Assembly: GCA_051294905.1 (NCBI GenBank)
Contig: CM119371.1
Coordinates: 35,156,001-35,220,000 of the forward strand
DNA from: Botryllus schlosseri
Taxonomy: Eukaryota
Length of the DNA stretch: 64,000 bases
Direction of reading: 5' to 3'
Both the position numbers and the translations under genes were made by a program. This document shows, piece after piece, positions 9,001-47,630 of the stretch (positions within the stretch are counted from its first letter, which is position 1; each line of letters starts with the position of its first letter). The notes below the pieces were generated by a model, which saw nothing but the letters and a program-made list of their open reading frames with translations, ran no database searches and had not been told where the DNA came from.

Positions 9001-9688
9001 GAGAGCTATACGTGTAATTTTGCGAAAGACGTTAACCAGGTGATGATACTCGCGCAATTTCTCTGAAAAGTAGAGATGAAATTCGACTCGAACTAGACGG
9101 TAGAATTGGCTAAAACTCGGTTCGATTATGCTTTGGGACAAGGCTCGACTCCTGAACGTGGTTAAAAGTGGAGCACTTGTCTATGATAGAAATATCGGCG
9201 TCTTTAATCCGAGAGCTATACGTGTAACTTTGCGAAAGACGTTGGCCAGGTGATGATACTCGCGCAATTTCTCTAAAAAGTAGAGATGAAATTCGACTCG
9301 AACTAGACGTTGGAATTGGCTAAAACTCGGTTCGATTATGCTTTGGGACAAGACTCGACTCCTGTACGTGGTTAAAAGTGGAGCACTTGTATATACTAGA
9401 AATATCGGCGTCTTTAATCCGAGAGCTATACGTGTAATTTTGCGAAAGACGTTGGCCAGGTGATGATACTCGCGCAATTTCTCTGAAAAGTAGAGATGAA
9501 ATTTGATTCGAACTAGACCAGTGGTTCCCAACGTGGGCGATATCGCCCCCCAGGGGGCGATTTGGCGATCTAGGGGGGCGAAAATGACGAAGGGGGCGAT
9601 AGGGGGGCGAAAATGGACAAAGGGGGCGACGGGGGGCGAAAATAGCGAAGGGGGCGATAGGGGGGCGATGACGCGTCAAAACGGCTGA

Positions 9689-9721
<33 letters not shown>

Positions 9722-12700
9722 TCATCCACCTAGCAATTCGGAGAGAAAAAACGTTATTTGCAGCTCTGAGCGGAGAAAGATGACCTTTTTTTTTTTTTTT
9801 TTAGTCAACCCGCCGGTGATTACAGTCTGTATGCCCAATTATCGGTGCACAAAATTTTGGGGGGCGATGATTGGTGTTGACCTTCAAAAGGGGGCGATGG
9901 GTCGAAAAAGGTTGGGAACCACTGAACTAGACGGTAGAATTGGCTAAAACTCGGTTCGATTATGCTTTGGGACAAGCCTCGACTCCTGTACGTAGTTAAA
10001 AGTGGAGCACTTGTCAATAATAGAAATATCGGCGTCTTTAATCCGAGAGCTATACGTGTAATTTTGCGAAAGACGTTGGCCAGGTGATAATCGCACGGAT
10101 TCTTTTGAAACTACACTCTAATTTCAACCGGAACAAGACGGTAGAATTCGATGAAACTTAGTTCGAACATGATTCAGGACAAGCTTCGACTCGTGTACGT
10201 GTCTTCGTTTTGATGCTGTATCGATAATTTAAATTGTGACATCTTAAATCAGATGGCCATGTGCTAATTTTCGACAAACATTGGCGGAGTGATGATACTC
10301 GCGCAATTTCTCTGAAGAGTAGAGATGAAATTCGACTCGAACTAGACCGTAGAATTGGCTAAAACTCGGTTCGATTATGCTTTGGGACAAGACTCGACTT
10401 CTGTACGTGGTTAAAAGTGGAGCACTTGTCTATAATAGAAATATCGGCGTCTTTAATCCGAGAGCTATACGTGTAATTTTGCGAAAGACGTTGGCCAGGT
10501 GATGATACTCGCGCAATTTCTCTGAAAAGTAGAGATGAAATTCGACTCGAACTAGACGGTAGAATTGGCTAAAACTAGGTTCGATTATGCTTTGGGACAA
10601 GACTCGACTCCTGTACGTGGTTAAAAGTGAAGCACTTGTATATAATAGAAATATCGGCGTCTTTAATCCGAGAGCTATACGTGTAATTTTGCGAAAGACG
10701 TTGGCCAGGTGATGATACTCGCGCAACTTCTCTGAAAAGTAGAGATGAAATTCGACTCGAACTAGACGGTAGAATTGGCTAAAACTCGGTTCGATTATGC
10801 TTTGGGACAAGCCTCGACTCCTGTACGTGGTTAAAAGTGGAGCACTTGTCTATAATAGAAATATCGGCGTCTTTAATCCGAGAGCTATACGTGTAATTTT
10901 GCGAAAGACGTTGGCCAGGTGATAATCGCACGGATTCTTTTGAAACTACACTCTAATTTCAACCGGAACAAGACGGTAGAATTCGATGAAACTTAGTTCG
11001 AACATGATTCAGGACAAGCTTCGACTCGTGTACGTGTCTACGTTTTGATGCCGTATCGATAATTTATATGGTGACATCTTAAATCAGACGGCCATGTGCT
11101 AATTTTCGACAAACATTGGCGGAGTGATGATACTCGCGCAATTTCTCTGAAAAGTAGAGATGAAATTCGACTCGAACTAGACGGTAGAATTGGCTAAAAC
11201 TCGGTTCGATTATGCTTTGGGACGAGACTCGACTCCTGTACGTGGTTAAAAGTGGAGCACTTGTCTATAATGGAAATATCGGCGTCTTTAATCCGAGAGC
11301 TATACGTGTAATTTTGCGAAAGACGTTGGCAAGGTGATTATACACGCGCAATTTCTCTGAAAAGTAGAGATGAAATTCGACTCGAACTAGACGGTAGAAT
11401 TGGCTAAAACTAGGTTCGATTATGCTTTGGGACAAGACTCGACTCCTGTACGTGGTTAAAAGTGGAGCACTTGTATATAATAGAAATATCGGCGTCTTTA
11501 ATCCGAGAGCTATACGTGTAATTTTGCGAAAGACGTTGGCCAGGTGATGATACTCGCGCTATTTCTCTGAAAAGTAGAGATGAAATTCGACTCGAACTAG
11601 ACGTTAGAATTGGCTAAAACTCGGTTCGATTATGCTTTGGGACAAGCCTCGACTCCTGTACGTGGTTAAAAGTGGAGCACTTGTCTATAATAGAAATATC
11701 GGCGTCTTTAATCCGAGAGCTATACGTGTAATTTTGCGAAAGACATTGGCCAGGTGATGATACTCGCGCTATTTCTCTGAAAAGTAGAGATCAAATTCGA
11801 CTCGAACTAGACGGTAGAATTGGCTAAAACTCGGTTCGATTATGCTTTGGGACAAGCCTAGACTCCTGCACGTGGTTAAAAGTGGAGCACTTGTCTATAA
11901 TAGAAATATCGACGTCTTTAATCCGAGAGCTATACGTGTAATTTTGCGAAAGACGTTGGCCAGGTGATGATACTCGCGCAATTTCTCTGAAAAGTAGAGA
12001 TGAAATTCGACTCGAACTAGACGGTAGAATTGGCTAAAACTAGGTTCGATTATGCTTTGGGACAAGACTCGACTCCTGTACGTGGTTAAAAGTGGAGCAC
12101 TTGTCTATAATAGAAATATCGGCGTCTTTAATCCGAGAGCTATACGTGTAATTTTGCGAAAGACGTTGGCCAGGTGATAATCGCACGGATTCTTTTGAAA
12201 CTACACTCTAATTTCAACCGGAACAAGACGGTAGAATTCGATGAAACTTAGTTCGAACATGATTCAGGACAAGCTTCGACTCGTGTACGTGTCTTCGTTT
12301 TGATGCCGTATCGATAATTTATATGATGACATCTTAAATCAGATGGCCATGTGCTAATTTTCGACAAACATTGGCGGAGTGATGATACTCGCGCAATTTC
12401 TCTGAAAAGTAGAGATGAAATTCGACTCGAACTAGACGGTAGAATTGGCTAAAACTCGGTTCGATTATGCTTTGGGACAAGACTCGACTCCTGTACGTGG
12501 TTAAAAGTGGAGCACTTGTCTATAATAGAAATATCGGCGTCTTTAATCCGAGAGCTATACGTGTAATTTTGCGAAAGACGTTGGCCAGGTGATGATACTC
12601 GCGCAATTTCTCTGAAAAGTAGAGATGAAATTCGACTCGAACTAGACGGTAGAATTGGCTAAAACTAGGTTCGATTATGCTTTGGGACAAGACTCGACTC

Positions 12701-14826
12701 CTGTACGTGGTTAAAAGTGGAGCACTTGTATAGAATAGAAATATCGGCGTCTTTAATCCAAGAGCTATACGTGTAATTTTGCGAAAGACGTTGGCCAGGT
12801 GATGATACTCGCGCAATTTCTCTCAAAAGTAGAGATGAAATTCGACTCGAACTAGACGGTAGAATTGGCTAAAACTCGGTTCGATTATGCTTTGGGACAA
12901 GACTCGACTCCTGTACGTGGTTAAAAGTGGAGTACTTGTCTATAATAGAAATATCGGCGTCTTTAATCCGAGAGCTATACGTGTAATTTTGCGAAAGACG
13001 TTGGCCAGGTGATGATACTCGCGCAATTTCTCTGAAAAGTAGAGATGAAATTCGACTCGAACTAGACGGTAGAATTGGCTAAAACTAGGTTCGATTATGC
13101 TTCGGGACAAGACTCGACTCCTGTACGTGGTTAAAAGTGGAGCACTTGTCTATAATAGAAATATCGGCGTCTTTAATCGGAGAGCTATACGTGTAATTTT
13201 GCGAAAGACGTTAACCAGGTGATGATACTCGCGCAATTTCTCTGAAAAGTAGAGATGAAATTCGACTCGAACTAGACGGTAGAATTGGCTAAAACTCGGT
13301 TCGATTATGCTTTGGGACAAGGCTCGACTCCTGAACGTGGTTAAAAGTGGAGCACTTGTCTATGATAGAAATATCGGCGTCTTTAATCCGAGAGCTATAC
13401 GTGTAACTTTGCGAAAGACGTTGGCCAGGTGATGATACTCGCGCAATTTCTCTAAAAAGTAGAGATGAAATTCGACTCGAACTAGACGTTGGAATTGGCT
13501 AAAACTCGGTTCGATTATGCTTTGGGACAAGACTCGACTCCTGTACGTGGTTAAAAGTGGAGCACTTGTATATACTAGAAATATCGGCGTCTTTAATCCG
13601 AGAGCTATACGTGTAATTTTGCGAAAGACGTTGGCCAGGTGATGATACTCGCGCAATTTCTCTGAAAAGTAGAGATGAAATTTGATTCGAACTAGACGGT
13701 AGAATTGGCTAAAACTCGGTTCGATTATGCTTTGGGACAAGCCTCGACTCCTGTACGTAGTTAAAAGTGGAGCACTTGTCAATAATAGAAATATCGGCGT
13801 CTTTAATCCGAGAGCTATACGTGTAATTTTGCGAAAGACGTTGGCCAGGTGATAATCGCACGGATTCTTTTGAAACTACACTCTAATTTCAACCGGAACA
13901 AGACGGTAGAATTCGATGAAACTTAGTTCGAACATGATTCAGGACAAGCTTCGACTCGTGTACGTGTCTTCGTTTTGATGCTGTATCGATAATTTAAATT
14001 GTGACATCTTAAATCAGATGGCCATGTGCTAATTTTCGACAAACATTGGCGGAGTGATGATACTCGCGCAATTTCTCTGAAGAGTAGAGATGAAATTCGA
14101 CTCGAACTAGACCGTAGAATTGGCTAAAACTCGGTTCGATTATGCTTTGGGACAAGACTCGACTTCTGTACGTGGTTAAAAGTGGAGCACTTGTCTATAA
14201 TAGAAATATCGGCGTCTTTAATCCGTGAGCTATACGTGTAATTTTGCGAAAGACGTTGGCCAGGTGATGATACTCGCGCAATTTCTCTGAAAAGTAGAGA
14301 TGAAATTCGACTCGAACTAGACGGTAGAATTGGCTAAAACTAGGTTCGATTATGCTTTGGGACAAGACTCGACTCCTGTACGTGGTTAAAAGTGGAGCAC
14401 TTGTATATAATAGAAATATCGGCGTCTTTAATCCGAGAGCTATACGTGTAATTTTGCGAAAGACGTTGGCCAGGTGATGATACTCGCGCAATTTCTCTGA
14501 AAAGTAGAGATGAAATTCGACTCGAACTAGACGGTAGAATTGGCTAAAACTCGGTTCGATTATGCTTTGGGACAAGCCTCGACTCCTGTACGTGGTTAAA
14601 AGTGGAGCACTTGTCTATAATAGAAATATCGGCGTCTTTAATCCGAGAGCTATACGTGTAATTTTGCGAAAGACGTTGGTCAGGTGATGATACTCGCGCA
14701 ATTTCTCTGAAAAGTAGAGATGAAATTCGACTCGAACTAGACGGTAGAATTGGCTAAAACTAGGTTCGATTATGCTTTGGGACAAGACTCGACTCCTGTA
14801 CGTGGGTAAAAGTGGAGCACTTGTAT
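1..14826. repeat. 210-bp tandem satellite array (~69 monomers in window, runs off the left edge) with interspersed ~205-bp divergent monomer
   Basis: The unit gtgatgatactcgcgcaatttctctgaaaagtagagatgaaattcgactcgaactagac... recurs every 210 bp. A divergent monomer (gataatcgcacggattcttttgaaactacac...) starts at about 1507, 2552, 3177, 5062, 7157, 10086, 10921, 12176 and 13851. Confidence 0.98.
9519..9924. mobile_element. 406-bp hAT (Buster/Charlie-type) MITE inserted in the satellite
   Basis: Perfect 14-bp TIR cagtggttcccaac/gttgggaaccactg. 8-bp TSD aactagac at 9511-9518 and 9925-9932. Internal gggggcga repeats and poly-T runs. The empty paralogous site is at 13690-13697. Confidence 0.95.
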
Positions 14827-34200: not shown

Positions 34201-37200
34201 TGTATTTTCATTATCGGCGAGAAATGGCTTTTTTGCTGTCGATAAAATACATCCAATAAATACGATTTATTCCTTGTATATATGGGCGAACAATTTATCC
34301 ATTCAGCAATCGGGCCTCCAAGTACTTAATTTTCCTATATCCGGCCCGCCGACTAGAGAAGTTGCACGCCCCTGCTCCGTAAGAATATCATCGCATTTCC
34401 GGTGCATTGGCATGAGGCACATGCAAGTTTGAAGTAAATACTCGCAAAGTAATTTATAATATAGGCGCACCCATAAAATATCGCAGCTGCAGGCGATCAA
34501 TACTGCAGCGATCTGCGTGATTATTAGTACAGTATTTGGTTGGGGTTAGTGCGGCGAGAATTTCAAACTAACTCTACCCCACTCCCTGACCGATAATCCT
34601 AATGGGAGAGCGTTTGAAATATGACCAATAAGATATCTCGGTATGTACATAGTATAAATGTACGGATAATGTTCAAGAAGAAATGTAATTATCAATAACA
34701 TTGAGCATTAAGTACGTTGCATCATGATTGCTTGTAAGATATCGGTAGTTGGAGTAGCAAACATTACCAATTATTGCGTCACATGATAGACTATCCTCGG
34801 AGACGTCGTGTCTAGACTCAATAGAATATCGGATCAACAATTCAACATTACTGTTGTCATTATTACATCACAAAATCAAGTCATTTCAAGTGCTCCTAAA
34901 ACCGTTGCACAAGCGTGTATTTGATCCTACACAGCGTTCAATAGTTCACGTTCACACATAATAAAAGCGATCGTATTCCGTGAACAGCGAACAACGTACG
35001 CTTCATGAAGCTTGCACAGATCACGATAAAATGTATAAAACACCAAAGTATGGAAGTATGGAAATGTCGTTCCATACCATAGATTAAAATCTTCCATTCC
35101 ATACCATACTTGCATTCTTCCATATTCCATACCAAAATATCGATCCATACCATACCATACTTCCATACCATACCATACCATGCCCTGGGCAAAGCCGTAC
35201 ATGATTTACTTTGGAAAAGTTTACATGCTTCACCAAAGACGACCTCTGTCAACGGCATAATACTAAACTCACCGGAATATTCTCCGATTGTCGTCAACGG
35301 CTGTTGGTCAACACCAGATAATCGAAGTTGCGGCAAGGTAGTAGACTCCGTCGCGACTGTACTTGGGTTCCATTTCGGGGTAACGATTGCATACTTTATG
35401 AGCTCATCATACTCCTCCTGTCACATTAAGTTGACGAGAAATGAAATGTTAATGTTTTGGGACAATAATATAGCATCTGAACTTCATCAACTGCGACAAA
35501 CCAGCATGTCTAACGAAGACTTGGACTAATTGGAGTGAAATACAGGTAATATAATTATATTCTGAATTAAATTGTTAGTTCTAGGTAATTCTAAACTAAT
35601 TTTATAATAAACTCAATTGTGAACGTTATTCTGAACTGGTTTTTCTAAAAATGCTACAGAACTGTATAGTGCGGAACGAGCCAAGTTTTCTGTACAGACA
35701 TTTGCTATTCTCATACTTATGAGCTCTTATTTTGTATGAATTGAACTTAATTTTTGTTGTTTACCTTCAACTAGGAATTTATTGAAATTCTAAAGTTTAT
35801 ACGAACTCTATAATTCTAATTCAAATCTAATTCAGAAAAGGTGGGAGTGTTCTAGTTGGCGAAGTCTGGTATAGCAGTCTTGTTGAAAATAATTGCATGC
35901 ATCTTCACATTATTGCATACACAATATATACATGTCTTACAAACCACATATATTGGAGTGGATACAAATTGGCTGCGTCAGCAATGACAACATATAGCCT
36001 ACTCTGGTGATACCCTCCATGTTTTGACGATTGGTCAGGGCTTGGTTAGGTTACCGGTAACCCTTTGGATTGGTTTGTGTGGGTTAAGGGCTATCCGTAG
36101 GTTAGCGTATCTGTTTGAGTATCTGTGCCAGTGGAAGAATGTTGTGTTGCATGGTTGAGTGAGAGGTTTGTTGGGGGCTAGGGTAAACCTGTAACCTAAC
36201 TTGAAATCCCAACCCAGCAGGCAACCCTACTATGAGATCTTCTCTCCCCTAAACCCAGAGTGGAATTGGTGGCAAGTGGCAACGTCACACCCAACTTTAC
36301 GATTAATTGCTTGATTATTCTATGCAAGAAACCTGAATTTGAAAACAATATCGATATAATAACTATCCGTTTCCAGTCTGGCACAAAACCAAACCAACTC
36401 CACCCCTATAGACGCTCCCCAACTAAATCCCTAATCTATAAACCAACCCTATCGCCAATATCAATCCACCCCTTATATTCCATGGGTGATATTTTTCCCA
36501 CTGCTGGTGTAGGACTGTTGTTCTTGATTAATGGATGTAGTGATAAGGTATATATATTACGTTACAGTCGCAGAGTCCTAGATTGAAGGGTATACACGCT
36601 CAATTCTATTTTATCATTCATTTAGTTGAATGTGGTTGATAGTTGATACGCAACGGTTGGCCAGCAAACGGATAATAATCTTTCAACTGTTTTGCTGATT
36701 AAGTGATTATGATTATACTAGACTACACCGCACGTCATTACGAAAACCAAGGGGCATCCCTAAAAGACGGAGAAGCGGAGGCAGCGGAGACAGCGGAGGC
36801 AGCGGAGAACGGACTCTAAAACGCAGAAGCAACGGAGACGGCGGAGAGAGCCAAAAATGCCGATTCCTAAAAGACGGAGACAGCGGACCTAGCGGAGAGC
36901 GGAGCTTTCGGTCATTAACCTTTATAGACACGCGCGACATAGCGGACGGATACTGAAAGCGGAGTCCGGGACCCCGCGAAATGGACATAGCGGACAGTTA
37001 TATAATATAGAAAGCGGAGATCGGGGCGTATCGGAAGATGTTTCGAAGCAGTGGAGAATAACGGAGAAGTCAGCCATGCAAGTTCAAGGCCAATTGGGCG
37101 ACTGATTGCCCATCGATGAGATGACATAGCGGGCGGTTATATAATACAAGGAAAGCGGAGTTCGGGGCGTATCGGAAGATGTTTCGAAGCAGTGGAGAAT

Positions 37201-40200
37201 AACGGAGAAGTCAGCCATATGCAAGTTCAAGGCCAATTGGGCGACTGATTGCCCATCGATGAGATGACATAGCGGACGGATACTGAAGCGGAGTTCGGGG
37301 CCCCGCGAAATAGACATAGCGGACGGTTATATAATATAGAAAGCGGAGATCAGGGCGTATCGGAAGATGTTTCGAAGCAGTGGAGAATAGCGGAGAAGTC
37401 AGCCATGCAAGTTCAAGGCCAATTGGGCGACTGATTGCCCATCGATGAGATGACATAGCGGGCGGTTATATGGTACAAAGAAAGCGGAGTTCGAGGCGTA
37501 TCGGAAGATGTTTCGAAGCAGTGGAGAATAACGGAGAAGTCAGCCATGCAAGTTCAAGGCCAATTGGGCGACTGATTGCCCATCGATGAGATGACATAGC
37601 GGGCGGTTATATAATACAAGGAAAGCGGAGTTCGGGGCGTATCGGAAGATGTTTCGAAGCAGTGCAGAATAACGGAGAAGTCAGCCATATGCAAGTTCAA
37701 GGCCAATTGGGCGACTGATTGCCCATCGATGAGATGACATAGCGGACGGATACTGAAGCGGAGTTCGGGGCCCCGCGAAATAGACATAGCGGACGGTTAT
37801 ATAATATAGAAAGCGGAGATCAGGGCGTATCGGAAGATGTTTCGAAGCAGTGGAGAATAGCGGAGAAGTCAGCCATGCAAGTTCAAGGCCAATTGGGCGA
37901 CTGATTGCCCATCGATGAGATGACATAGCGGGCGGTTATATAATACAAGGAAAGCGGAGTTCGGGGCGTATCGGAAGATGTTTCGAAGCAGTGCAGAATA
38001 ACGGAGAAGTCAGCCATATGCAAGTTCAAGGCCAATTGGGCGACTGATTGCCCATCGATGAGATGACATAGCGGGCGGTTATATGGTACAAAGAAAGCGG
38101 AGTTCGAGGCGTATCGGAAGATGTTTCGAAGCAGTGGAGAATAACGGAGAAGTCAGCCATGCAAGTTCAAGGCCAATTGGGCGACTGATTGCCCATCGAT
38201 AAGATGACATAGCGGGCGGTTATATAATACAAGGAAAGCGGAGTTCGGGGCGTATCGGAAGATGTTTCGAAGCAGTGGAGAATAACGGAGAAGTCAGCCA
38301 TGCGAGTTCAAGGCCAATTGGCGACTGATTGCCCTTCGATGAGATGACATAGCGGACGGATACTGAAAGCGGAGTTCGGGGCGCCGCGAAATAGACATAG
38401 CGGACGGTTATATAATACAGAAAGCGGAGATCAGGGCGTATCGGGAGATGTTTCGAAGCAGTGGAGAATAACGGAGAAGTCAGCCATGCGAGTTCAAGGC
38501 CAATTGGCGACTGATTGCCCTTCGATGAGATGACATAGCGGACGGATACTGAAAGCGGAGTTCGGGGCCCCGCGAAATAGACATAGCGGACGGTTAAATA
38601 ATATAGAAAGCGGAGATCAGGGCGTATCGGAAGATGTTTCGAAGCAGTGGAGAATAGCGGAGAAGTCAGCCATGCAAGTTCAAGGCCAATTGGGCGACTG
38701 ATTGCCCATCGATGAGATGACATAGCGGGCGGTTATATAATACAAGGAAAGCGGAGTTCGGGGCGTATCGGAAGATGTTTCGAAGCAGTGGAGAATAACG
38801 GAGAAGTCAGCCATGCAAGTTCAAGGCCAATTGGGCGACTGATTGCCCATCGATGAGATGACATAGCGGGCGGTTATATAATACAAGGAAAGCGGAGTTC
38901 GGGGCGTATCGGAAGATGTTTCGAAGCAGTGGAGAATAACGGAGAAGTCAGCCATGCAAGTTCAAGGCCAATTGGGCGACTGATTGCCCATCGATGAGAT
39001 GACATAGCGGGCGGTTATATAATGCAAGGAAAGCGGAGTTCGGGGCGTATCGGAAGATGTTTCGAAGCAGTGGAGAATAACGGAGAAGTCAGCCATATGC
39101 AAGTTCAAGGCCAATTGGGCGACTGATTGCCCATCGATGAGATGACATAGCGGACGGATACTGAAGCGGAGTTCGGGGCCCCGCGAAATAGACATAGCGG
39201 ACGGTTATATAATATAGAAAGCGGAGATCAGGGCGTATCGGAAGATGTTTCGAAGCAGTGGAGAATAGCGGAGAAGTCAGCCATGCAAGTTCAAGGCCAA
39301 TTGGGCGACTGATTGCCCATCGATGAGATGACATAGCGGGCGGTTATATGGTACAAAGAAAGCGGAGTTCGAGGCGTATCGGAAGATGTTTCGAAGCAGT
39401 GGAGAATAACGGAGAAGTCAGCCATGCAAGTTCAAGGCCAATTGGGCGACTGATTGCCCATCGATGAGATGACATAGCGGGCGGTTATATAATACAAGGA
39501 AAGCGGAGTTCGGGGCGTATCGGAAGATGTTTCGAAGCAGTGCAGAATAACGGAGAAGTCAGCCATATGCAAGTTCAAGGCCAATTGGGCGACTGATTGC
39601 CCATCGATGAGATGACATAGCGGACGGATACTGAAGCGGAGTTCGGGGCCCCGCGAAATAGACATAGCGGACGGTTATATAATATAGAAAGCGGAGATCA
39701 GGGCGTATCGGAAGATGTTTCGAAGCAGTGGAGAATAGCGGAGAAGTCAGCCATGCAAGTTCAAGGCCAATTGGGCGACTGATTGCCCATCGATGAGATG
39801 ACATAGCGGGCGGTTATATAATACAAGGAAAGCGGAGTTCGGGGCGTATCGGAAGATGTTTCGAAGCAGTGCAGAATAACGGAGAAGTCAGCCATATGCA
39901 AGTTCAAGGCCAATTGGGCGACTGATTGCCCATCGATGAGATGACATAGCGGGCGGTTATATGGTACAAAGAAAGCGGAGTTCGAGGCGTATCGGAAGAT
40001 GTTTCGAAGCAGTGGAGAATAACGGAGAAGTCAGCCATGCAAGTTCAAGGCCAATTGGGCGACTGATTGCCCATCGATAAGATGACATAGCGGGCGGTTA
40101 TATAATACAAGGAAAGCGGAGTTCGGGGCGTATCGGAAGATGTTTCGAAGCAGTGGAGAATAACGGAGAAGTCAGCCATGCGAGTTCAAGGCCAATTGGC

Positions 40201-43200
40201 GACTGATTGCCCTTCGATGAGATGACATAGCGGACGGATACTGAAAGCGGAGTTCGGGGCGCCGCGAAATAGACATAGCGGACGGTTATATAATACAGAA
40301 AGCGGAGATCAGGGCGTATCGGGAGATGTTTCGAAGCAGTGGAGAATAACGGAGAAGTCAGCCATGCGAGTTCAAGGCCAATTGGCGACTGATTGCCCTT
40401 CGATGAGATGACATAGCGGACGGATACTGAAAGCGGAGTTCGGGGCCCCGCGAAATAGACATAGCGGACGGTTAAATAATATAGAAAGCGGAGATCAGGG
40501 CGTATCGGAAGATGTTTCGAAGCAGTGGAGAATAGCGGAGAAGTCAGCCATGCAAGTTCAAGGCCAATTGGGCGACTGATTGCCCATCGATGAGATGACA
40601 TAGCGGGCGGTTATATAATACAAGGAAAGCGGAGTTCGGGGCGTATCGGAAGATGTTTCGAAGCAGTGGAGAATAACGGAGAAGTCAGCCATGCAAGTTC
40701 AAGGCCAATTGGGCGACTGATTGCCCATCGATGAGATGACATAGCGGGCGGTTATATAATACAAGGAAAGCGGAGTTCGGGGCGTATCGGAAGATGTTTC
40801 GAAGCAGTGGAGAATAACGGAGAAGTCAGCCATGCAAGTTCAAGGCCAATTGGGCGACTGATTGCCCATCGATGAGATGACATAGCGGGCGGTTATATAA
40901 TGCAAGGAAAGCGGAGTTCGGGGCGTATCGGAAGATGTTTCGAAGCAGTGGAGAATAACGGAGAAGTCAGCCATGCGACTTCAAGGCCAATTGGCGACTG
41001 ATTGCCCTTCGATGAGATGACATAGCGGACGGATACTGAAAGCGGAGTTCGGGGCCCCGCGAAATAGACATAGCGGACGGTTATATAATATAGAAAGCGG
41101 AGATCAGGGCGTATCGGAAGATGTTTCGAAGCAGTGGAGAATAGCGGAGAAGTCAGCCATGCAAGTTCAAGGCCAATTGGGCGACTGATTGCCCATCGAT
41201 GAGATGACATAGCGGGCGGTTATATGGTACAAAGAAAGCGGAGTTCGAGGCGTATCGGAAGATGTTTCGAAGCAGTGGAGAATAACGGAGAAGTCAGCCA
41301 TGCGAGTTCAAGGCCAATTGGCGACTGATTGCCCTTCGATGAGATGACATAGCGGACGGATACTGAAAGCGGAGTTCGGGGCGCCGCGAAATAGACATAG
41401 CGGACGGTTATATAATACAGAAAGCGGAGATCAGGGCGTATCGGAAGATGTTTCGAAGCAGTGGAGAATAACGGAGAAGTCAGCCATGCGAGTTCAAGGC
41501 CAATTGGCGACTGATTGCCCTTCGATGAGATGACATAGCGGACGGATACTGAAAGCGGAGTTCGGGGCCCCGCGAAATAGACATAGCGGACGGTTATATA
41601 ATATAGAAAGCGGAGATCAGGGCGTATCGGAAGATGTTTCGAAGCAGTGGAGAATAGCGGAGAAGTCAGCCATGCAAGTTCAAGGCCAATTGGGCGACTG
41701 ATTGCCCATCGATGAGATGACATAGCGGGCGGTTATATAATACAAGGAAAGCGGAGTTCGGGGCGTATCGGAAGATGTTTCGAAGCAGTGGAGAATAACG
41801 GAGAAGTCAGCCATGCAAGTTCAAGGCCAATTGGGCGACTGATTGCCCATCGATGAGATGACATAGCGGGCGGTTATATAATACAAGGAAAGCGGAGTTC
41901 GGGGCGTATCGGAAGATGTTTCGAAGCAGTGGAGAATAACGGAGAAGTCAGCCATGCAAGTTCAAGGCCAATTGGGCAACTGATTGCCCATCGATGAGAT
42001 GACATAGCGGGCGGTTATATAATGCAAGGAAAGCGGAGTTCGGGGCGTATCGGAAGATGTTTCGAAGCAGTGGAGAATAACGGAGAAGTCAGCCATGCGA
42101 GTTCAAGGCCAATTGGCGACTGATTGCCCTTCGATGAGATGACATAGCGGACGGATACTGAAAGCGGAGTTCGGGGCCCCGCGAAATAGACATAGCGGAC
42201 GGTTATATAATCTAGAAAGCGGAGATCAGGGCGTATCGGAAGATGTTTCGAAGCAGTGGAGAATAGCGGAGAAGTCAGCCATGCAAGTTCAAGGCCAATT
42301 GGGCGACTGATTGCCCATCGATGAGATGACATAGCGGGCGGTTATATAATACAAGGAAAGCGGAGTTCGGGGCGTATCGGAAGATGTTTCGAAGCAGTGG
42401 AGAATAACGGAGAAGTCAGCCATATGCAAGTTCAAGGCCAATTGGGCGACTGATTGCCCGTCGATGAGATGACATAGCGGACGGATACTGAAAGCGGAGT
42501 TCGGGGCCCCGCGAAATAGACATAGCGGACGGTTATATAATACAGAAAGCGGAGATCAAGGCGTATCGGAAGATGTTTCGAAGCAGTGGAGAATAGCGGA
42601 GAAGTCAGCCGCGAGTTCAAGGTGACTGATTGCCCATCGATGAGATGACATAGCAGACGGTTATATCGTTATAATATACTGAAAGCGGAGTTTGGGGCGT
42701 AGCGAAATATATTTCGAAACAGCAGAGAATAACGGAGAAGTCAGCCATGCGAGCTTCAGGCCAATTCGGTGATTGCTTGCCCATCGATGAGATGACATAG
42801 CGGACGCGTTTCGTATGACAATTTAACTGTTGATAGTTGTGGAATATTATACTGAACTACTTTCTACTTTACAAAAACCGAATTGCAAATGTAATTATTT
42901 CATCCAGAATACTGTTCAGGTAGATGTTGAAGTAATTGCGAAACATTACCACTTCAGTAAGTACCGGAAATAGCCCAAATCTACTTGATTAGCTCGAAAA
43001 AGTAGAAATATTCAACATATATAATATCTGAACAACGTGATGTGATAAAGCAAAAATAACGTCAGATTCGTATTCAGCGCCCCCAAATTAGGCATAATTG
43101 ACCCGAAGAAGTCCTGGCGCAAAAATCCTGTAGATCAGCGTTATTGGTGCTGCGGCGTGCGACGCCATCAAACCAGGAAATTGGCCCGTGAGCACATTCT

Positions 43201-46200
43201 AGTTTGAGACCTCTGCACTAGTGACTATAGTGCGAAATCCGTAACTACTTGCTATGAACCCAATATCGGGGCATTTTGCCTGGCCTTAACAATCCACCTT
43301 TGCTCGACTCGATCTTCTCCTTATTTGCTAACACATGTCACTTCATTAACGAAATATCTTTTACAAATTATATACAGATGTTACCAAAATGAAACAATGA
43401 ATGAAACGAAGAAAATATATAGCCTACACTATACAGTCATGATAAAAGGTTAAATAAAAGTTCACGGCTGAATTTTAGCAGCTAAGCAGTTTTTGCGGTA
43501 GCAAATGAAGTATGTCATCTCATCAGCCTTTTCATCGACTAGGCAGGACTTGTGGAACCATCTTCGGCATTTCACACACATTATCTGCTGATCTTGGTCT
43601 TTACTACCTTTACATAAGCTGCTGTCGCAGTTATCCCATTTCGATTTATTCATGACACCAATGGCAGATGAGGAATCGGCTAGCTCTGCATATGTAATAT
43701 CACTTTCTGATATCGCATTCCAATCATCCAAAATACAACGGGATTCTGATTGCGTTTCGTCAGTCGGTCGACGGCCGGTTGGCAGTTGGTTCTCAGTTGA
43801 CCGTTCTCGAATCCCTGCCAAGTAATCTACCCAGACTCGGCACTTTCCCGACGGAAAATCACGCGCTAAAGGCAAATTATTTGTCACGCAATAAGCATTT
43901 GCTATCACATGTATGCCGCAGTCAAATGTGTTCTCCTGTTGTTTAACGTCCCTGCACAGAAAAAACTGCCACTCGTCAATTGTGCATCTCACATTCGCAA
44001 CCCTGAAGCAAGCACTGACAATTTTGAATGAGTTGCGAAAAATACCTTCATATCTCGTCCGATTAGGAGATATAAAAGAGTCCATCACCAGTATAGTTTT
44101 GGTACTCAAGTTAACTACTGTCAGTATCCAGTGATTTGGAACATGCACTAGAAAAATGAAGAAGTCTTTGTTCGCTGCTTGGTGCTTACGCGCAAATCGG
44201 CATAGCGACGGCACGTTGTGATCTTGTCCAGTCCACTGATACCTGTACGAGGTGAAAAACAAAACCAAAGGTTTTTCGGTACAAAATGCTTCTATCGCTC
44301 GCTCTATTGTTTCATCATCTAGCCATTGCTCAGGTTTCAAGCATTGGCGTATCACATGCTGCGGATCTTTATTTTCCTTTGACGACGAAAGCCAAGGGTA
44401 ATCATTGAGGGCGGGCAGCTTCACAGAGTCGGTCGTCAAGTCCAATGGCGCTGTTTCTTCATTGATTTCAGACATCTGCTCGTCGGATATCATTGATAGA
44501 TCAGAATGCAATAGCGGTTGTTTGGGTTGCTGTTTTCTTGGTGTTGAATGGTGAGCTGGTGTACTATTTACGGTATAGTCAAAATCTACCCGGCGAGGCC
44601 TTTTCCGACCGGACTTCCTGGTCCTACCCTTGCGATTTTTCAGGAGCTGACTCAAATTGCAGGGGACCGCTTTCTGTGTGCTGTTGTCCCTTAATGACAT
44701 CGCTACAGCTAGAATATGATAGCATATTGTTGTGCTTGGGCAAGTACATGAGGGAGGCTTTGGGAAATACCTGACGCAATGAACTTGACGTTGAGTCATT
44801 GAAGCAACGGTGAACACACCATTGGTCGACGAGAATCCAACCATATTATTTATCCCGCACCACCTCGCCATAGCGCGCTGGGAGAATCTTTGATTCAACT
44901 TATTGTTTGACCTGAAGAATTTTGTCACATTTTGGTCATTGTTGATTTCACTTATGATATCGTCAAGCGTCAACATTTTAGGAAATTTGATATGTTCGAG
45001 TTTTTTTCTCATGTAACTAAATTCCGTTTTAAGTTGATATTCCCCATGTCCGCATTCCGCACGGCGAAAATCATGTAAGTAGTTCGTCTGCAGATTATGC
45101 ATCCATAATATGATGGCATCCAATGTCATTTCTTTACGCCCGCTCGCAGCCTTCAAAACGTTGTTCATTGACTCGCTGATATTGTTAGTGGGTGGGCTCT
45201 CACTAAAAGCGGAAAAAAATTTCGTTCTGAATCTGCAGGTATTTCTGGAAATGTCACCCTTCAAATGTTTGTCAAAATATTCTCTGAATTTGCCTGTCCA
45301 TCCATTTGCCAGCGTACGATATTTATCGTTGAATTGATCTTCTCCATCCGACAAAACCAACTTGCGTATATCACCTAATAGAATGCTCACTTCGTGTGTT
45401 TTAAAAGAGTGTTCGCGAAGCCATCTTTTTGCATCATTGAGGATATGGTTCAGACAATAAAACTTTGGCAAGTCTGGAAAGTAATCATGGAGTGGTTTAG
45501 TTATGCCTTTTTCCCGGTCAGTCACAAACGGAATGTTTGAGCATTTATCCATACCGAGGCAATGCAATATGTCGCGGAACATCTGTTCATGGTTTGTCAT
45601 GAACTTTTTCTCATGCACCATAAATGCAACTGGGAATATTGGGTCCCCCTTCATTAGCACATTGCGGCACACTAAAATGGAAACGTAAAAGTCCCCTAGG
45701 GAGAAAGTTGTATCGTAGGATAGCACTTGGGGTAGTTCCGTATTCTTCATTGAGATATATATATATATATCCGTCCGCTATGTCATCTCATCGAAGGGCA
45801 ATCAGTCGCCAATTGGCCTTGAACTCGCATGGCTGACTTCTCCGTTACTCTCCACTGCTTCGAAACATCTTCCGATACGCCCCGAACTCCGCTTTCCTTG
45901 TATTATATAACCGCCCGCTATGTCATCTCATCGATGGGCAATCAGTCGCCCAATTGGCCTTGAACTTGCATGGCTGACTTCTCCGCTATTCTCCACTGCT
46001 TCGAAACATCTTCCGATACGCCCTGATCTCCGCTTTCTATATTATATAACCGTCCGCTATGTCTATTTCGCGGGGCCAAGAACTCCGCTTTCAGTATCCG
46101 TCCGCTATGTCATCTCATCGAAGGGCAATCAGTCGCCAATTGGCCTTGAACTCGCATGGCTGACTTCTCCGTTACTCTCCACTGCTTCGAAACATCTTCC

Positions 46201-47630
46201 GATACGCCCCGAACTCCGCTTTCCTTGTATTATATAACCGCCCGCTATGTCATCTCATCGATGGGCAATCAGTCGCCAAATTGGCCTTGAACTCGCATGG
46301 CTGAATTCTCCGTTATTCTCTGCTGTTTCGAAATATATTTCGCTACGCCCCGAACTCCGCTTTCAGTATATTATAACGATATAACCGTCCGCTGTGTCAT
46401 CTCATCGATGGGCAATCAGTCACCAAATTGGCCTGAAACTCGCATGGCTGACTTCTCCGTTATTCTCTGCTGTTTCGAAATATATTTCGCTGCGCCCCGA
46501 ACTCCGTTTTCAGTATATTATAACCGTCCGCTATGTCATCTCATCGATGGGCAATCAGTCACCAAATTGGCCCGAAACTCGCATGGCTGACTTCTCCGTT
46601 ATTCTCTGCTGTTTCGAAATATATTTCGTTACGCCCCAAACTCCGCTTTCAGTATATTATAACGATATAACCGTCTGTTATGTCATCTCATCGATGGGCA
46701 ATCAGTCGCCCAATTGGCCTTGAACTTGCATGGCTGACTTCTCCGTTATTCTCCACTGCATCGAAAAATCTTCCGATATGCCCTGATCTCCGCTTTCTGT
46801 ATTATATAACCGTCCGCTATGTCTATTTCGCGGCGCCCCGAACTCCGCTTTCAGTATCCGTCCGCTATGTCATCTCATCGAAGGGCAATCAGTCGCCAAT
46901 TGGCCTTGAACTCGCATGGCTGACTTCTCCGTTATTCTCCACTGCTTCGAAACATCTTCCGATACGCCCCGAACTCCGCTTTCTTTGTACTATATAACCG
47001 CCCGCTATGTCATCTCATCGATGGGCAATCAGTCGCCCAATTGGCCTTGAACTTGCATATGGCTGACTTCTCCGTTATTCTCCACTGCTTCGAAACATCT
47101 TCCGATACGCCCCGAACTCCGCTTTCCTTGTATTATAACCGCCCGCTATGTCATCTCATCGATGGGCAATCAGTCGCCCAATTGGCCTTGAACTTGCATG
47201 GCTGACTTCTCCGTTATTCTCCACTGCTTCGAAACATCTTCCGATACGCCCCGATCTGCGCTTTCTATATTATATAACTGTCCGCTATGTCCATTTCGCG
47301 GGGTCCCGGACTCCGCTTTCAGTATCCGTCCGCTATGTCGCGCGTGTCTATAAAGGTTAATGACCGAAAGCTCCGCTCTCCGCTAGGTCCGTTGTCTCCG
47401 TCTTTTAGGAATCGGCATTTTTGGCTCTCTCCGCCGTCTCCGTTGCTTCCGCGTTTTAGGGTCCGTTCTCCGCTGCCTCCGCTGTCTCCGCTGCCTCCGC
47501 TTCTCCGTCTTTTAGGGATGCCCAAAACCAAGACATGTCCCACCTGCAGCTCAGTAGAAACGGAGCTTCCCCTCGATGTTTCGGACGGCAAATTGGGTAA
47601 TTCCTCTCTTTCTTCGCTCATCGTCGACAT
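22218..47630 (-). CDS. POC5: Centrosomal protein POC5, 13 coding exons, ~583 aa
   Basis: GT-AG exons with consistent phases: 47630-47544, 35417-35273, 33040-32936, 31633-31386, 30335-30237, 28963-28793, 27898-27719, 26595-26439, 26251-26129, 25662-25544, 24307-24214, 23098-23013, 22355-22218 (1752 nt including stop). Recognised motifs: SRGSSVSTELQ|EEYDELIKYAIVTP, LKELLHTYEVSVGRKDQVISNL, KVWQAWRS..KWKEKVEKACQKKAQEVC, MKKAFMRGVCALNLEAMSMF, VLVERHHP. The last acceptor is less certain. Confidence 0.93.
22561..22977. mobile_element. hAT-like MITE of the gactcgagtc-rich family
   Basis: TIR cagggttgtaa / ttacaaccctg with a degenerate TSD. Related copies or fragments at about 25790-26041, 55385-55860, 56885-57080, 59670-60130 and 63667-64000. 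Confidence 0.75.
23688..24181. mobile_element. 494-bp palindromic MITE with TTAA target (Kolobok-like termini)
   Basis: TTAA at 23684-23687 and 24182-24185. Termini are aggggcactgc...gcagtgcccct with ~190-bp imperfect inverted arms. A half copy lies at about 29072-29290. Confidence 0.85.
24549..24952. mobile_element. 404-bp hAT MITE with aatcc subterminal repeats
   Basis: TIR cagagatgagc/gctcatctctg. 8-bp TSD ctgtacag at 24541-24548 and 24953-24960. Confidence 0.92.
26813..27665. mobile_element. Non-autonomous hAT element
   Basis: Imperfect TIR caggcacatagccag / ctggctacgagcctg. Near-TSD attataac / aatataac (1 mismatch). Confidence 0.75.
32034..32724. mobile_element. 691-bp hAT (Buster/Charlie-type) MITE
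   Basis: Ends gaatggttctcaacc / ggttgagaaccactg. 8-bp TSD cactaggc at 32026-32033 and 32725-32732. ggggtccgcg subterminal motifs. Confidence 0.85.
33522..35187. mobile_element. 1.67-kb non-autonomous hAT element with (CCATA)n subterminal repeats, POC5 intron 2
   Basis: Perfect 20-bp TIR cagggcatggtatggtatgg. 8-bp TSD ggcaaagc at 33514-33521 and 35188-35195. Confidence 0.93.
36752..42806 (+). repeat. Left arm of MULE: ~6-kb TIR made of 141/143-bp and ~186-bp tandem units
   Basis: The unit gacatagcgggcggttatataatacaaggaaagcggagttcggggcgtatcggaagatg... repeats with a 141-bp period (38711 to 38852) and a 186-bp period (38341 to 38527). Higher-order periods are 470 and 1878 bp. Confidence 0.95.
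43462..45750 (-). CDS. MULE transposase (DDE core + SWIM) fused to Ulp1/C48 SUMO-protease-like domain and PHD finger; apparently 5'-truncated
   Basis: 762-aa open frame. Transposase motifs: LSYDTTF (D1), FVTDREKG (D2), CLNH (CxxH), TNNISESMN (E). SWIM: CTCPSTTICYH. Basic NLS-like KNRKGRTRKSGRKRPRR. Ulp1 motifs: WLDDETI, NHWIL, VMDSF, QQENTFDCG. PHD: C..C..CVKCRRWFHKSC..C..C. Confidence 0.92.
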   Translation of the reverse strand: MKNTELPQVLSYDTTFSLGDFYVSILVCRNVLMKGDPIFPVAFMVHEKKFMTNHEQMFRDILHCLGMDKCSNIPFVTDREKGITKPLHDYFPDLPKFYCLNHILNDAKRWLREHSFKTHEVSILLGDIRKLVLSDGEDQFNDKYRTLANGWTGKFREYFDKHLKGDISRNTCRFRTKFFSAFSESPPTNNISESMNNVLKAASGRKEMTLDAIILWMHNLQTNYLHDFRRAECGHGEYQLKTEFSYMRKKLEHIKFPKMLTLDDIISEINNDQNVTKFFRSNNKLNQRFSQRAMARWCGINNMVGFSSTNGVFTVASMTQRQVHCVRYFPKPPSCTCPSTTICYHILAVAMSLRDNSTQKAVPCNLSQLLKNRKGRTRKSGRKRPRRVDFDYTVNSTPAHHSTPRKQQPKQPLLHSDLSMISDEQMSEINEETAPLDLTTDSVKLPALNDYPWLSSSKENKDPQHVIRQCLKPEQWLDDETIERAIEAFCTEKPLVLFFTSYRYQWTGQDHNVPSLCRFARKHQAANKDFFIFLVHVPNHWILTVVNLSTKTILVMDSFISPNRTRYEGIFRNSFKIVSACFRVANVRCTIDEWQFFLCRDVKQQENTFDCGIHVIANAYCVTNNLPLARDFPSGKCRVWVDYLAGIRERSTENQLPTGRRPTDETQSESRCILDDWNAISESDITYAELADSSSAIGVMNKSKWDNCDSSLCKGSKDQDQQIMCVKCRRWFHKSCLVDEKADEMTYFICYRKNCLAAKIQP
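45769..47523 (-). repeat. Right arm of MULE: ~1.75-kb TIR of the same tandem units in inverted orientation
   Basis: It is the reverse complement of the left-arm units. The ORF track gives the same spurious peptides on the opposite strand. Confidence 0.95.
47544..47630 (-). CDS. POC5: POC5 first coding exon (MSTMSEEREELPNLPSETSRGSSVSTELQ)
   Basis: 29 codons ending CAG|GTGGGA. It joins in phase 0 to exon 2 (EEYDELIKYAIVTP) across the 12.1-kb intron that holds the MULE. Confidence 0.88.

Follow-up and report, generated by a model that had tools for sequence, protein, structure and literature searches.

What kind of gene is the single long reading frame in a 64,000-nucleotide stretch of the Botryllus schlosseri genome (GenBank assembly GCA_051294905.1, contig CM119371.1, positions 35,156,001 to 35,220,000 of the forward strand; hereafter the window, with positions counted from its first letter), and does it encode a working transposase, a host protein or a remnant? 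A preliminary description had placed this frame in a giant Foldback-type Mutator element at 36752-47523 and read it as a transposase-SWIM-SUMO protease-PHD fusion, possibly of an undescribed kind. Here we conclude that the locus is very probably a young copy, internally deleted and most likely non-autonomous, of a multi-copy family of Foldback-type Mutator-like elements (MULEs) in an animal genome; intact members of this family encode a longer protein of 1013 amino acids (aa). Papers are cited by their PubMed Central (PMC) numbers, in each case for the accessible part of their text.

Results

A Foldback-type Mutator-like element with unequal arms

The transposon occupies 10,772 bp (36752-47523) and is flanked on both sides by the perfect 9-bp direct repeat AAAACCAAG, a target-site duplication (TSD). 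Its termini read GGGCATCCC.../...GGGATGCCC, the first bases being GGGCATCCCTAAAAGACGGAG and the far end the reverse complement of GGGCATCCCTAAAAGACGGAG, and they form a terminal inverted repeat of 390 nt with 99% complementarity. For this region a repeat finder yielded 532 inverted pairs, of up to 608 nt (the longest at 96%), and many additional inverted matches of 260-608 nt link the left and right arms. Both arms are tandem arrays with units of 141, 186, 327 and ~470 bp (at 36984-42806 and 45758-47339 by Tandem Repeats Finder), are marked by sharp shifts in GC content and GC skew, and differ in length (~6.1 kb on the left versus ~1.8 kb on the right); within the left arm a 1878-bp higher-order duplication was recognized from identical tandem-repeat rows offset by 1878 bp. 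Long inverted tandem-repeat arms, with lengths varying between ends and among copies of 1.0-15.1 kb, assign the element to the Foldback type, while a DDE (Asp-Asp-Glu) core with CxxH, a TSD of ~9 bp and terminal inverted repeats assign it to Mutator/MULE. The perfect TSD, the kilobase modular arms and the Foldback-type Mutator assignment of the preliminary description were all borne out.

There are 89 occurrences of the heptamer AGCGGAG in the window, versus an expectation of 4.2, and 85 of them lie within the arms (left arm, plus strand, 67; right arm, minus strand, 18). This enrichment is mostly a by-product of the tandem repeats. Since the motif is found in every unit and also in the non-tandem terminus, where each end carries four copies spaced 9 nt apart inside the first 56 nt, it is a candidate protein-binding site. 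Open frames of 105-167 aa (MSSHRWAISRPIGLELAW...) also lie in the arm repeats at 38220-42332 and 45920-46997 and recur with the tandem units; these are repeat artefacts, not genes, and could mislead gene callers.

A transposase core, SWIM finger, C48 peptidase and PHD finger in one reading frame

The 762-aa open reading frame (ORF) on the minus strand is the sole one of at least 180 aa in the 64-kb window, and its domains are listed in Table 1 together with the other features of the element. Scanning it with Pfam, as the preliminary description had proposed, gave a divided outcome: Peptidase_C48 (PF02902) scored 59.5 bits, well over its cut-off of 20.7 (E = 5.4e-16), whereas MULE (24.7 bits, cut-off 27.6, E = 3.2e-5), PHD (20.5 bits, cut-off 24, E = 4.8e-4) and SWIM (14.3 bits, cut-off 19.6, E = 0.03) stayed below theirs. 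The latter three were assigned from homologues, from invariant residues and from matches of profiles or structures. For the transposase core, the MULE profile exceeds its cut-off in many homologues (e.g. 36.0 in P0097 and 35.4 in P0070), residues D13, D78, E193, C99 and H102 are invariant in all six aligned sequences, and the family profile matches the ISCth4 Mutator-family transposase 6xg8 (E = 8.3e-5). The SWIM signature C335-x-C337-x5-C343-x-H345 is placed after this core. All PHD ligands (C708, C713, C725, C728, H733, C736, C750 and C755) are present, with C-x4-C in the first and last pairs, and the Pfam PHD score reaches at least 24 in six of the nine homologues having a PHD match. The basic stretch at residues 371-387 may serve as a nuclear localisation signal. 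Every residue named earlier was recovered in the uninterrupted frame, i.e. the DDE triad, the SWIM finger, the C48 triad with its NHW (H540), MDS (D557) and QQENTFDCG (Q605/C611) motifs, and the C-terminal PHD.

Table 1. Features of the element and its flanks in the window (residues are numbered in the 762-aa frame unless stated otherwise)
Feature	Position	Strand	Remarks
Left target-site duplication AAAACCAAG	36743..36751	.	identical to 47524-47532
Left terminal inverted repeat	36752..37141	+	390 nt, 99%; first ~230 nt non-tandem, four AGCGGAG 9 nt apart at 36774-36807
Left arm (3' arm relative to the ORF)	36984..42806	+	141/186/327/470-bp arrays; 1878-bp duplication, 37313-39190 vs 39191-41068
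Non-repeat spacer downstream of the ORF stop, presumed 3' untranslated region	42807..43461	-	collinear with full-length copies
Truncated transposase ORF, 762 aa	43462..45750	-	residues 252-1013 of the family's 1013-aa protein
PHD-type C4HC3 zinc finger, aa 708-755	43486..43629	-	predicted local distance difference test (pLDDT) of the model 80-90 there
Peptidase C48 (Ulp1/SENP-like), aa 504-627 by Pfam	43870..44241	-	H540, D557, oxyanion Q605, nucleophile C611
Basic stretch KNRKGRTRKSGRKRPRR, aa 371-387	44590..44640	-	SGRKxPR kept across homologues
SWIM-type CxCx5CxH	44716..44748	-	C335, C337, C343, H345; invariant in 6/6 sequences
DDE/RNase-H-like MULE core, aa 1-250	45001..45750	-	D13 (45712-45714), D78 (45517-45519), C99xxH102, E193 (45172-45174)
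Private deletion junction	45751..45770	-	arm unit ending ...GACATAGCGGACGG, then (TA)8 run, then ORF codon ~250
Right arm (5' arm relative to the ORF)	45758..47523	-	same tandem units, inverted
Right terminal inverted repeat	47134..47523	-	
Right target-site duplication AAAACCAAG	47524..47532	.	

The window copy has lost the N-terminal part of its transposase gene

The ORF starts only 12 residues ahead of the first catalytic Asp, and its stop-to-stop frame adds just nine residues before the arm repeats set in. In homologues from other genomes the N-terminus is longer by 100-290 residues and includes a conserved PRxxKQxxNxKY block. By querying the window's own 495-Mb assembly with one such homologue, P0001, we found that its residues 7-878 align without stops in 1018-aa frames at three other loci (C2, C13 and C14), versus from residue 96 only in the window. 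All three loci hold ATG-initiated ORFs of an equal 1013 aa, within elements of 15,117 bp (C2, 8-bp TSD AAAATGTC), 14,044 bp (C13, TSD TACACTAAC) and 11,263 bp (C14, TSD ATAGCAGGA), whose termini are shared with the window copy and whose TSDs differ.

Collinearity of the window copy with these intact copies begins at 45756, corresponding to codon ~250, and runs downward; missing are the first 747 nt of the ORF, i.e. 251 N-terminal codons, and a 4.5-kb internal region upstream of it. Among eight loci examined, the 747 nt were complete at five, partial at two and absent at the window only, and the whole 120-nt junction was matched, among the matches listed (150 of 230), by the window's own place alone. 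In the intact copies the 4.5-kb region separates the 5' arm from the transposase ATG (for C14, L013 3115-7651; also in C13 and C2). It is 98-99.8% conserved among the three and contains stop-to-stop frames of just 70-137 aa; it could represent a promoter with a long leader, or else a second gene that has decayed or is spliced. An upstream exon that would restore the N-terminus in the window was considered as well and rejected, the nine codons ahead of the ATG being followed by arm repeats up to the terminus.

Because the 251 codons and the 4.5 kb of internal sequence are deleted, the window copy is most likely non-autonomous, and its ORF is a remnant whose lost codons hold the presumed DNA-binding domain. 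Compared with the three intact copies, the remaining frame has 21 changes in 2289 nt and seven altered amino acids, none of them catalytic, and so it is open through the youth of the copy and not through a need for the truncated product. The preliminary description overlooked this 5' deletion and the accompanying loss of the presumed DNA-binding domain; the fusion that it reported holds in that the domains are joined in one ORF, and fails in that the transposase is incomplete.

Copies of the family and their mobility

In the genome the ORF DNA is matched 49 times, six times over all 2289 nt at 98-100% identity, and the terminal 209 nt gave 165 candidates, of which 40 were scored and all 40 proved at least 95% identical. 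Eleven further elements of 1.0-13.2 kb were fetched from paired termini, with nine perfect 9-bp TSDs, one of 8 bp and one element having none. Added to the window copy and those of C2, C13 and C14, they make a set of 15 elements with both ends examined, of which 12 have perfect 9-bp TSDs (all different), two have TSDs of 8 bp and one has none. Elements consisting of arms only are represented by L025 (1.0 kb) and L026 (1.4 kb).

Two deleted elements, L028 (C6:11454342-11459625) and L029 (C12:16434257-16444140), share the same internal junction, by which the whole DDE core is gone, yet sit at different perfect 9-bp TSDs, and deleted copies are therefore mobilised in trans. Several more genomic copies begin at ORF nt ~788-820, which together with L028 and L029 points to a non-autonomous sub-lineage amplified in trans. 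The window copy retains everything that L028 and L029 retain, namely both termini and the arms, and so it could still be moved in trans by the intact copies.

Structural models of the protease, PHD finger and N-terminal domain

An AlphaFold2 model of residues 441-762, built from a 25-sequence alignment, had a mean pLDDT of 87.3 and a predicted template modelling score (pTM) of 0.88. Its best Foldseek matches were yeast Ulp1 and human SENP5, SENP1, SENP3 and SENP2 (E 1.8e-9 to 1e-7, TMt 0.64-0.77; Ulp1 2hkp at E 1.8e-9, SENP5 at TMt 0.77), and NEDD8 proteases, bacterial CE-clan effectors and poxvirus I7L ranked below them. The family profile gave the same preference, with 1.3e-35 for SENP1 and 3e-31 for Ulp1 versus 2.9e-17 for the NEDD8 protease SENP8. 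In the 25 sequences the catalytic His, Gln and Cys are invariant and the Asp is kept in at least 90%; the His-Asp-Cys triad is thus accompanied by an oxyanion Gln six residues before the Cys, and this Gln-x5-Cys spacing is a hallmark of Ulp1. Judged from the sequence and the model, the C48 domain is probably an active SUMO-type isopeptidase.

For the C-terminal finger, the family profile matches the PHD fingers of MLL3, SHL, TAF3, KDM5A and others (4.9e-6 to 1e-3), and a phmmer search with the last 67 residues alone returned nearly exclusively named PHD-finger proteins, the best being UHRF1 (E 0.0025).

Residues 1-251 of the intact protein were modelled with a pLDDT of 86.6. In a VIA search of this model the top seven rows were WOPR, SSR4, GCM, NAC and WRKY DNA-binding folds (Z 5.0-7.5), and residues 137-202 resemble the helix-turn-helix (HTH) domains of transposases (Z 4.3-4.7); Foldseek returned no match at E ≤0.001 for the N-terminal model, its values being 7e-3 or weaker. 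Pfam CG-1 is matched in eight of 40 homologues and not in the 1013-aa protein. WRKY-GCM1-type DNA-binding domains have been described for MULE transposases (PMC1702500, accessible part), and the modelled fold fits this type with middling scores, for which reason residues 1-251 are referred to here as a presumed DNA-binding domain.

Selection on the individual domains

To compare regions of the protein, the ratio of nonsynonymous to synonymous divergence (dN/dS) was calculated by the Nei-Gojobori method between the intact ORF and a diverged subfamily B of the same genome, represented by a 912-aa frame running to a premature stop (C1:7.136 Mb) and by the C-terminal 624 aa of a second copy (C4:16.797 Mb). 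Ratios of 0.24 for the N-terminus, 0.21 for the DDE core, 0.21 for the SWIM region, 0.24-0.25 for the linker, 0.31-0.37 for C48 and 0.27 for the PHD were obtained, versus 0.90 for the 50-residue spacer between C48 and PHD, all of them mixing selected and neutral divergence because subfamily B is partly decayed. Synonymous divergence between the subfamilies is ~0.4-0.6 in all regions; in a third subfamily (C8) the synonymous sites are saturated. The contrast of C48 and PHD with the spacer argues that the add-on domains are constrained, and both appear to be under purifying selection, almost as strong as that on the catalytic core, while the spacer drifts.

Two side observations concern these diverged subfamilies. 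Close to a diverged subfamily copy on C1, a 543-aa ORF lies ~4 kb from the element (L017 557-2188, minus strand; C1:7130556-7132187) and, judged by eye from its sequence, resembles a BTB/Kelch-repeat protein. The third, far more diverged subfamily (L019 3140-4171 and 6895-7998; C8:4687-4692 kb) has a MULE core of 367 aa and a C48+PHD part of 343 aa in separate open frames ~2.7 kb apart, which could have been split by decay, insertion or an intron.

Low-level transcription of the family

In the single-cell RNA run X22, sparse reads were mapped across the ORF body on one strand only, which we take to be the sense strand from the usual geometry of 3' libraries, and their depth peaks at the 3' end of the ORF (43372-43639). 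At position 43567, where the window has G, all 12 X22 reads carry A, as do all six other copies checked. In the bulk run X24 almost nothing but scattered reads was found over the ORF in the ~6% of the run that was read. The X22 reads thus show low-level transcription of the family, and those at 43567 carry the allele of other copies, not that of the window copy.

Homologues and related transposons

A HMMER search against 1.84 billion cluster representatives yielded 2287 homologous proteins at E ≤0.001, 804 at 1e-10 and 178 at 1e-30, with Ciona intestinalis, Hydra vulgaris (P0021 and P0023) and Ptychodera flava among the named sources. Among 40 representatives of at least 700 aa whose architectures were scanned, 21 have C48, nine have PHD, four have both and eight have a CG-1-like N-terminus; P0046 combines CG-1, MULE, C48 and PHD, and C48 with PHD is also present in P0003, P0012 and P0028. 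As the closest database protein is just 35-44% identical, the family is distinct at the sequence level. It is a new sequence family with an architecture, transposase-C48-PHD, that was already known.

This disposes of the possibly undescribed combination put forward earlier, given the 21 of 40 homologue clusters with C48, the four of 40 with C48 and PHD, and the Ulp1 reported on hydra and lancelet Mutator elements in the accessible part of PMC2836005 (Bao, Kapitonov and Jurka 2010). The accompanying statement that MULEs with Ulp1-like domains are known was correct: the same text places Ulp1 in Mutator transposons from hydra, lancelet and plants, citing Repbase Reports of 2008/2009, and its Figure 1e, going by the legend, aligns Ginger1 with Mutator transposases over their Ulp1 and PHD domains. 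In PMC1702500, MULE-type transposases of Ciona and C. elegans are noted to have a PHD at the C-terminus. Ulp1, C48, PHD, SUMO and protease go unmentioned in a bioRxiv survey of DDE transposases, and Ulp1, C48, PHD, Foldback and protease in a 2026 paper on arthropod MULEs.

Among the described systems, hydra and lancelet MuDR come close to the window family in having a DDE Mutator-type transposase fused in one ORF to Ulp1/C48 (PMC2836005); in the window family, and likewise in homologues P0003, P0012, P0028, P0046, P0052, P0092 and P0098, a PHD follows C48. Mutator/Foldback elements are described in PMC3169594, where FARE of Arabidopsis and Phantom with Foldback-like ends are cited. Its subject, Tm1 of root-knot nematodes, shares with our family the composite tandem-repeat inverted arms of unequal length, the 9-bp TSDs and the many derivatives that are internally deleted or like miniature inverted-repeat transposable elements; according to the part of the text accessible, Tm1 differs in having ~14-bp repeats and a 496-aa transposase with FLYWCH and no protease or PHD, against units of 141-470 bp, arms of up to 6 kb and a 1013-aa protein with C48 and PHD here. 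Rehavkus has a PHD finger, a minisatellite and 9-bp TSDs (PMC6446971, Dupeyron et al. 2019), and the corresponding traits, PHD, 9-bp TSD and subterminal tandem arrays, are present in the window family; in contrast, the TIRs of Rehavkus are 26-400 bp, its minisatellite precedes the 3' TIR only, the accessible text mentions no Ulp1 for it, and homologues of our protein exceed the Pfam MULE cut-off. No FLYWCH, a Phantom trait, was matched in the 1013-aa protein, and one distant homologue (P0172) has it; this lack is not decisive for Phantom, because Table 1 of PMC6446971 allows 'None or FLYWCH or SWIM' there. Ginger1 (Ginger1-9_HM; PMC2836005 Table 1) resembles the family in carrying a C-terminal Ulp1, sometimes followed by a PHD, on a cut-and-paste transposase, but its core is a Gypsy-type integrase with YPYY/GPY-F motifs instead of a MULE DDE core, and its TSD and ends differ. 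In plant MULEs carrying ULP (KI-MULE/Kaonashi of Arabidopsis, and those of melon and rice), C48 is likewise carried by a Mutator-like element, of a plant and not of an animal. The ULP-like gene of Kaonashi is separate and acquired, resides in transposase-less elements, and is not known to form a C-terminal domain of a transposase or to be followed by a PHD.

Apart from the element, the window contains a 14.8-kb satellite array (35-14824) with a 210-bp unit, 70.7 copies and 86% matches, which shows a steady positive GC skew of ~0.16 and is unrelated to the arm repeats of the element.

Discussion

An intact member of the family is 11-15 kb long and has one intronless gene of 1013 aa, whose product comprises an N-terminal WRKY/GCM1-like β-sheet domain and a helical HTH-like domain, both presumed to bind DNA, then the DDE core with CxxH, the SWIM finger, the basic stretch, an Ulp1/SENP-type C48 and the C-terminal PHD. 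According to the mechanism proposed here, this transposase would recognise the termini and the repeated units of the arms, with AGCGGAG as the candidate site, and would cut and paste the element, leaving behind the 9-bp duplications that were observed; intact copies could act in this way on the window copy too, its termini and arms being kept. The PHD finger would tether C48 and the transposase to histone H3 tails, and SUMO may thereby be removed locally from chromatin or repair factors, at either the donor or the target site.

Several observations weigh against this reading. The MULE, PHD and SWIM scores of the window ORF itself lie under the curated Pfam cut-offs, and of the two subfamily B copies behind the dN/dS ratios one has a premature stop and the other is 5'-truncated. 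RNA depth is very low. The nearest fingers of the PHD conflict, being of UHRF1/DPF type by the single sequence and of MLL3, SHL, TAF3 and KDM5A type by the family profile, and the fold matches of the N-terminal model are middling (Z <8; none in Foldseek at E ≤0.001).

That the 762-aa ORF is by itself the complete, functional transposase of an undescribed family, with the PHD-C48 pair as an element-targeted anti-silencing device, was the first reading, favoured by an open frame in which all DDE, SWIM, C48 and PHD residues are present, and the purifying selection on C48 and PHD would agree with it, as would the literature searched, which reports no functional test of the PHD-C48 module. We consider it very improbable: three intact copies have 251 extra N-terminal residues, which are conserved in homologues of other animals and evolve at a dN/dS of 0.24, the window junction is a private deletion, and the architecture is widespread among homologues and in print. 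Its 'complete' and 'undescribed architecture' parts are refuted by the intact 1013-aa copies, the homologue survey and the accessible text of PMC2836005. A further possibility, which would also run counter to our conclusion, is that the window copy expresses its 762-aa protein and that this protein, deficient in DNA binding, regulates, i.e. inhibits, the family transposase. Truncated transposase repressors occur in other cut-and-paste families, and an in-frame ATG lies 6 nt inside the junction with the frame intact. Such a role is hardly to be expected, however, as the deletion also took the 4.5 kb upstream of the ORF where the promoter would be located, all 12 RNA reads at 43567 carry the allele of other copies, and the unique junction gives no sign of propagation.

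With the locus read as a deleted copy of an otherwise intact family, the role of C48 and PHD in the full-length transposase has to be weighed separately. They might form a reader-eraser pair, in which the PHD docks the transposase on a histone H3 state and the protease strips SUMO from silencing or repair factors, so as to evade SUMO-dependent heterochromatin or to bias repair, with the arm repeats as a multi-site landing pad; this proposal, which we hold to be unlikely, builds on the findings that C48 and PHD are intact, that their constraint resembles that of the catalytic core and that many animal MULE clusters share them. It is possible, if still doubtful, that the PHD mainly steers target-site choice through the state of H3 tails at open chromatin, and that C48 modulates SUMO-dependent repair or chromatin factors after the cut, for efficiency or damage control instead of anti-silencing. 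The best PHD matches of the family profile include TAF3, KDM5A, DIDO1, CFP1, Spp1, EBS and SHL, whose fingers are H3K4me3 readers, and two Trp are kept in the family consensus, W705 and W731 (in WFH); however, the best single-sequence match is the PHD of UHRF1, a reader of unmodified H3, and no obvious consensus was seen among 13 TSD sequences. A repair-linked role for transposon Ulp1/OTU domains, proposed in the accessible part of PMC2836005, would also accord with this reading. Alternatively, C48 might act on its own multi-domain protein as a self-processing protease, for instance by freeing the transposase from its C-terminal tail, with no action in trans on SUMO conjugates. Polyprotein processing has been suggested for a MULE-fused OTU protease (PMC1702500, accessible part), and C48 is flanked by a long, fast-evolving linker and spacer (spacer dN/dS 0.90); this nevertheless seems improbable, since the nearest matches are SUMO-specific isopeptidases (SENP1 at 1.3e-35) and not viral processing proteases, poxvirus I7L being reached only at a Foldseek E of 1.5e-5 and a TM of ~0.3.

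For annotation, the long ORF of the window is a truncated transposon gene and not a host protease or PHD gene. The domain-wise contrast in dN/dS argues that the add-on domains serve the element rather than being dead cargo. In the literature searched, the question of what purpose SUMO/ubiquitin-type proteases and PHD fingers have on transposases has been raised and never tested. With three intact, near-identical 1013-aa copies, many deletion derivatives mobilised in trans and low-level transcripts read as sense, the family is a candidate active Foldback-MULE in an animal, and it would offer a natural system for asking why many cut-and-paste transposases carry such proteases and PHD fingers.

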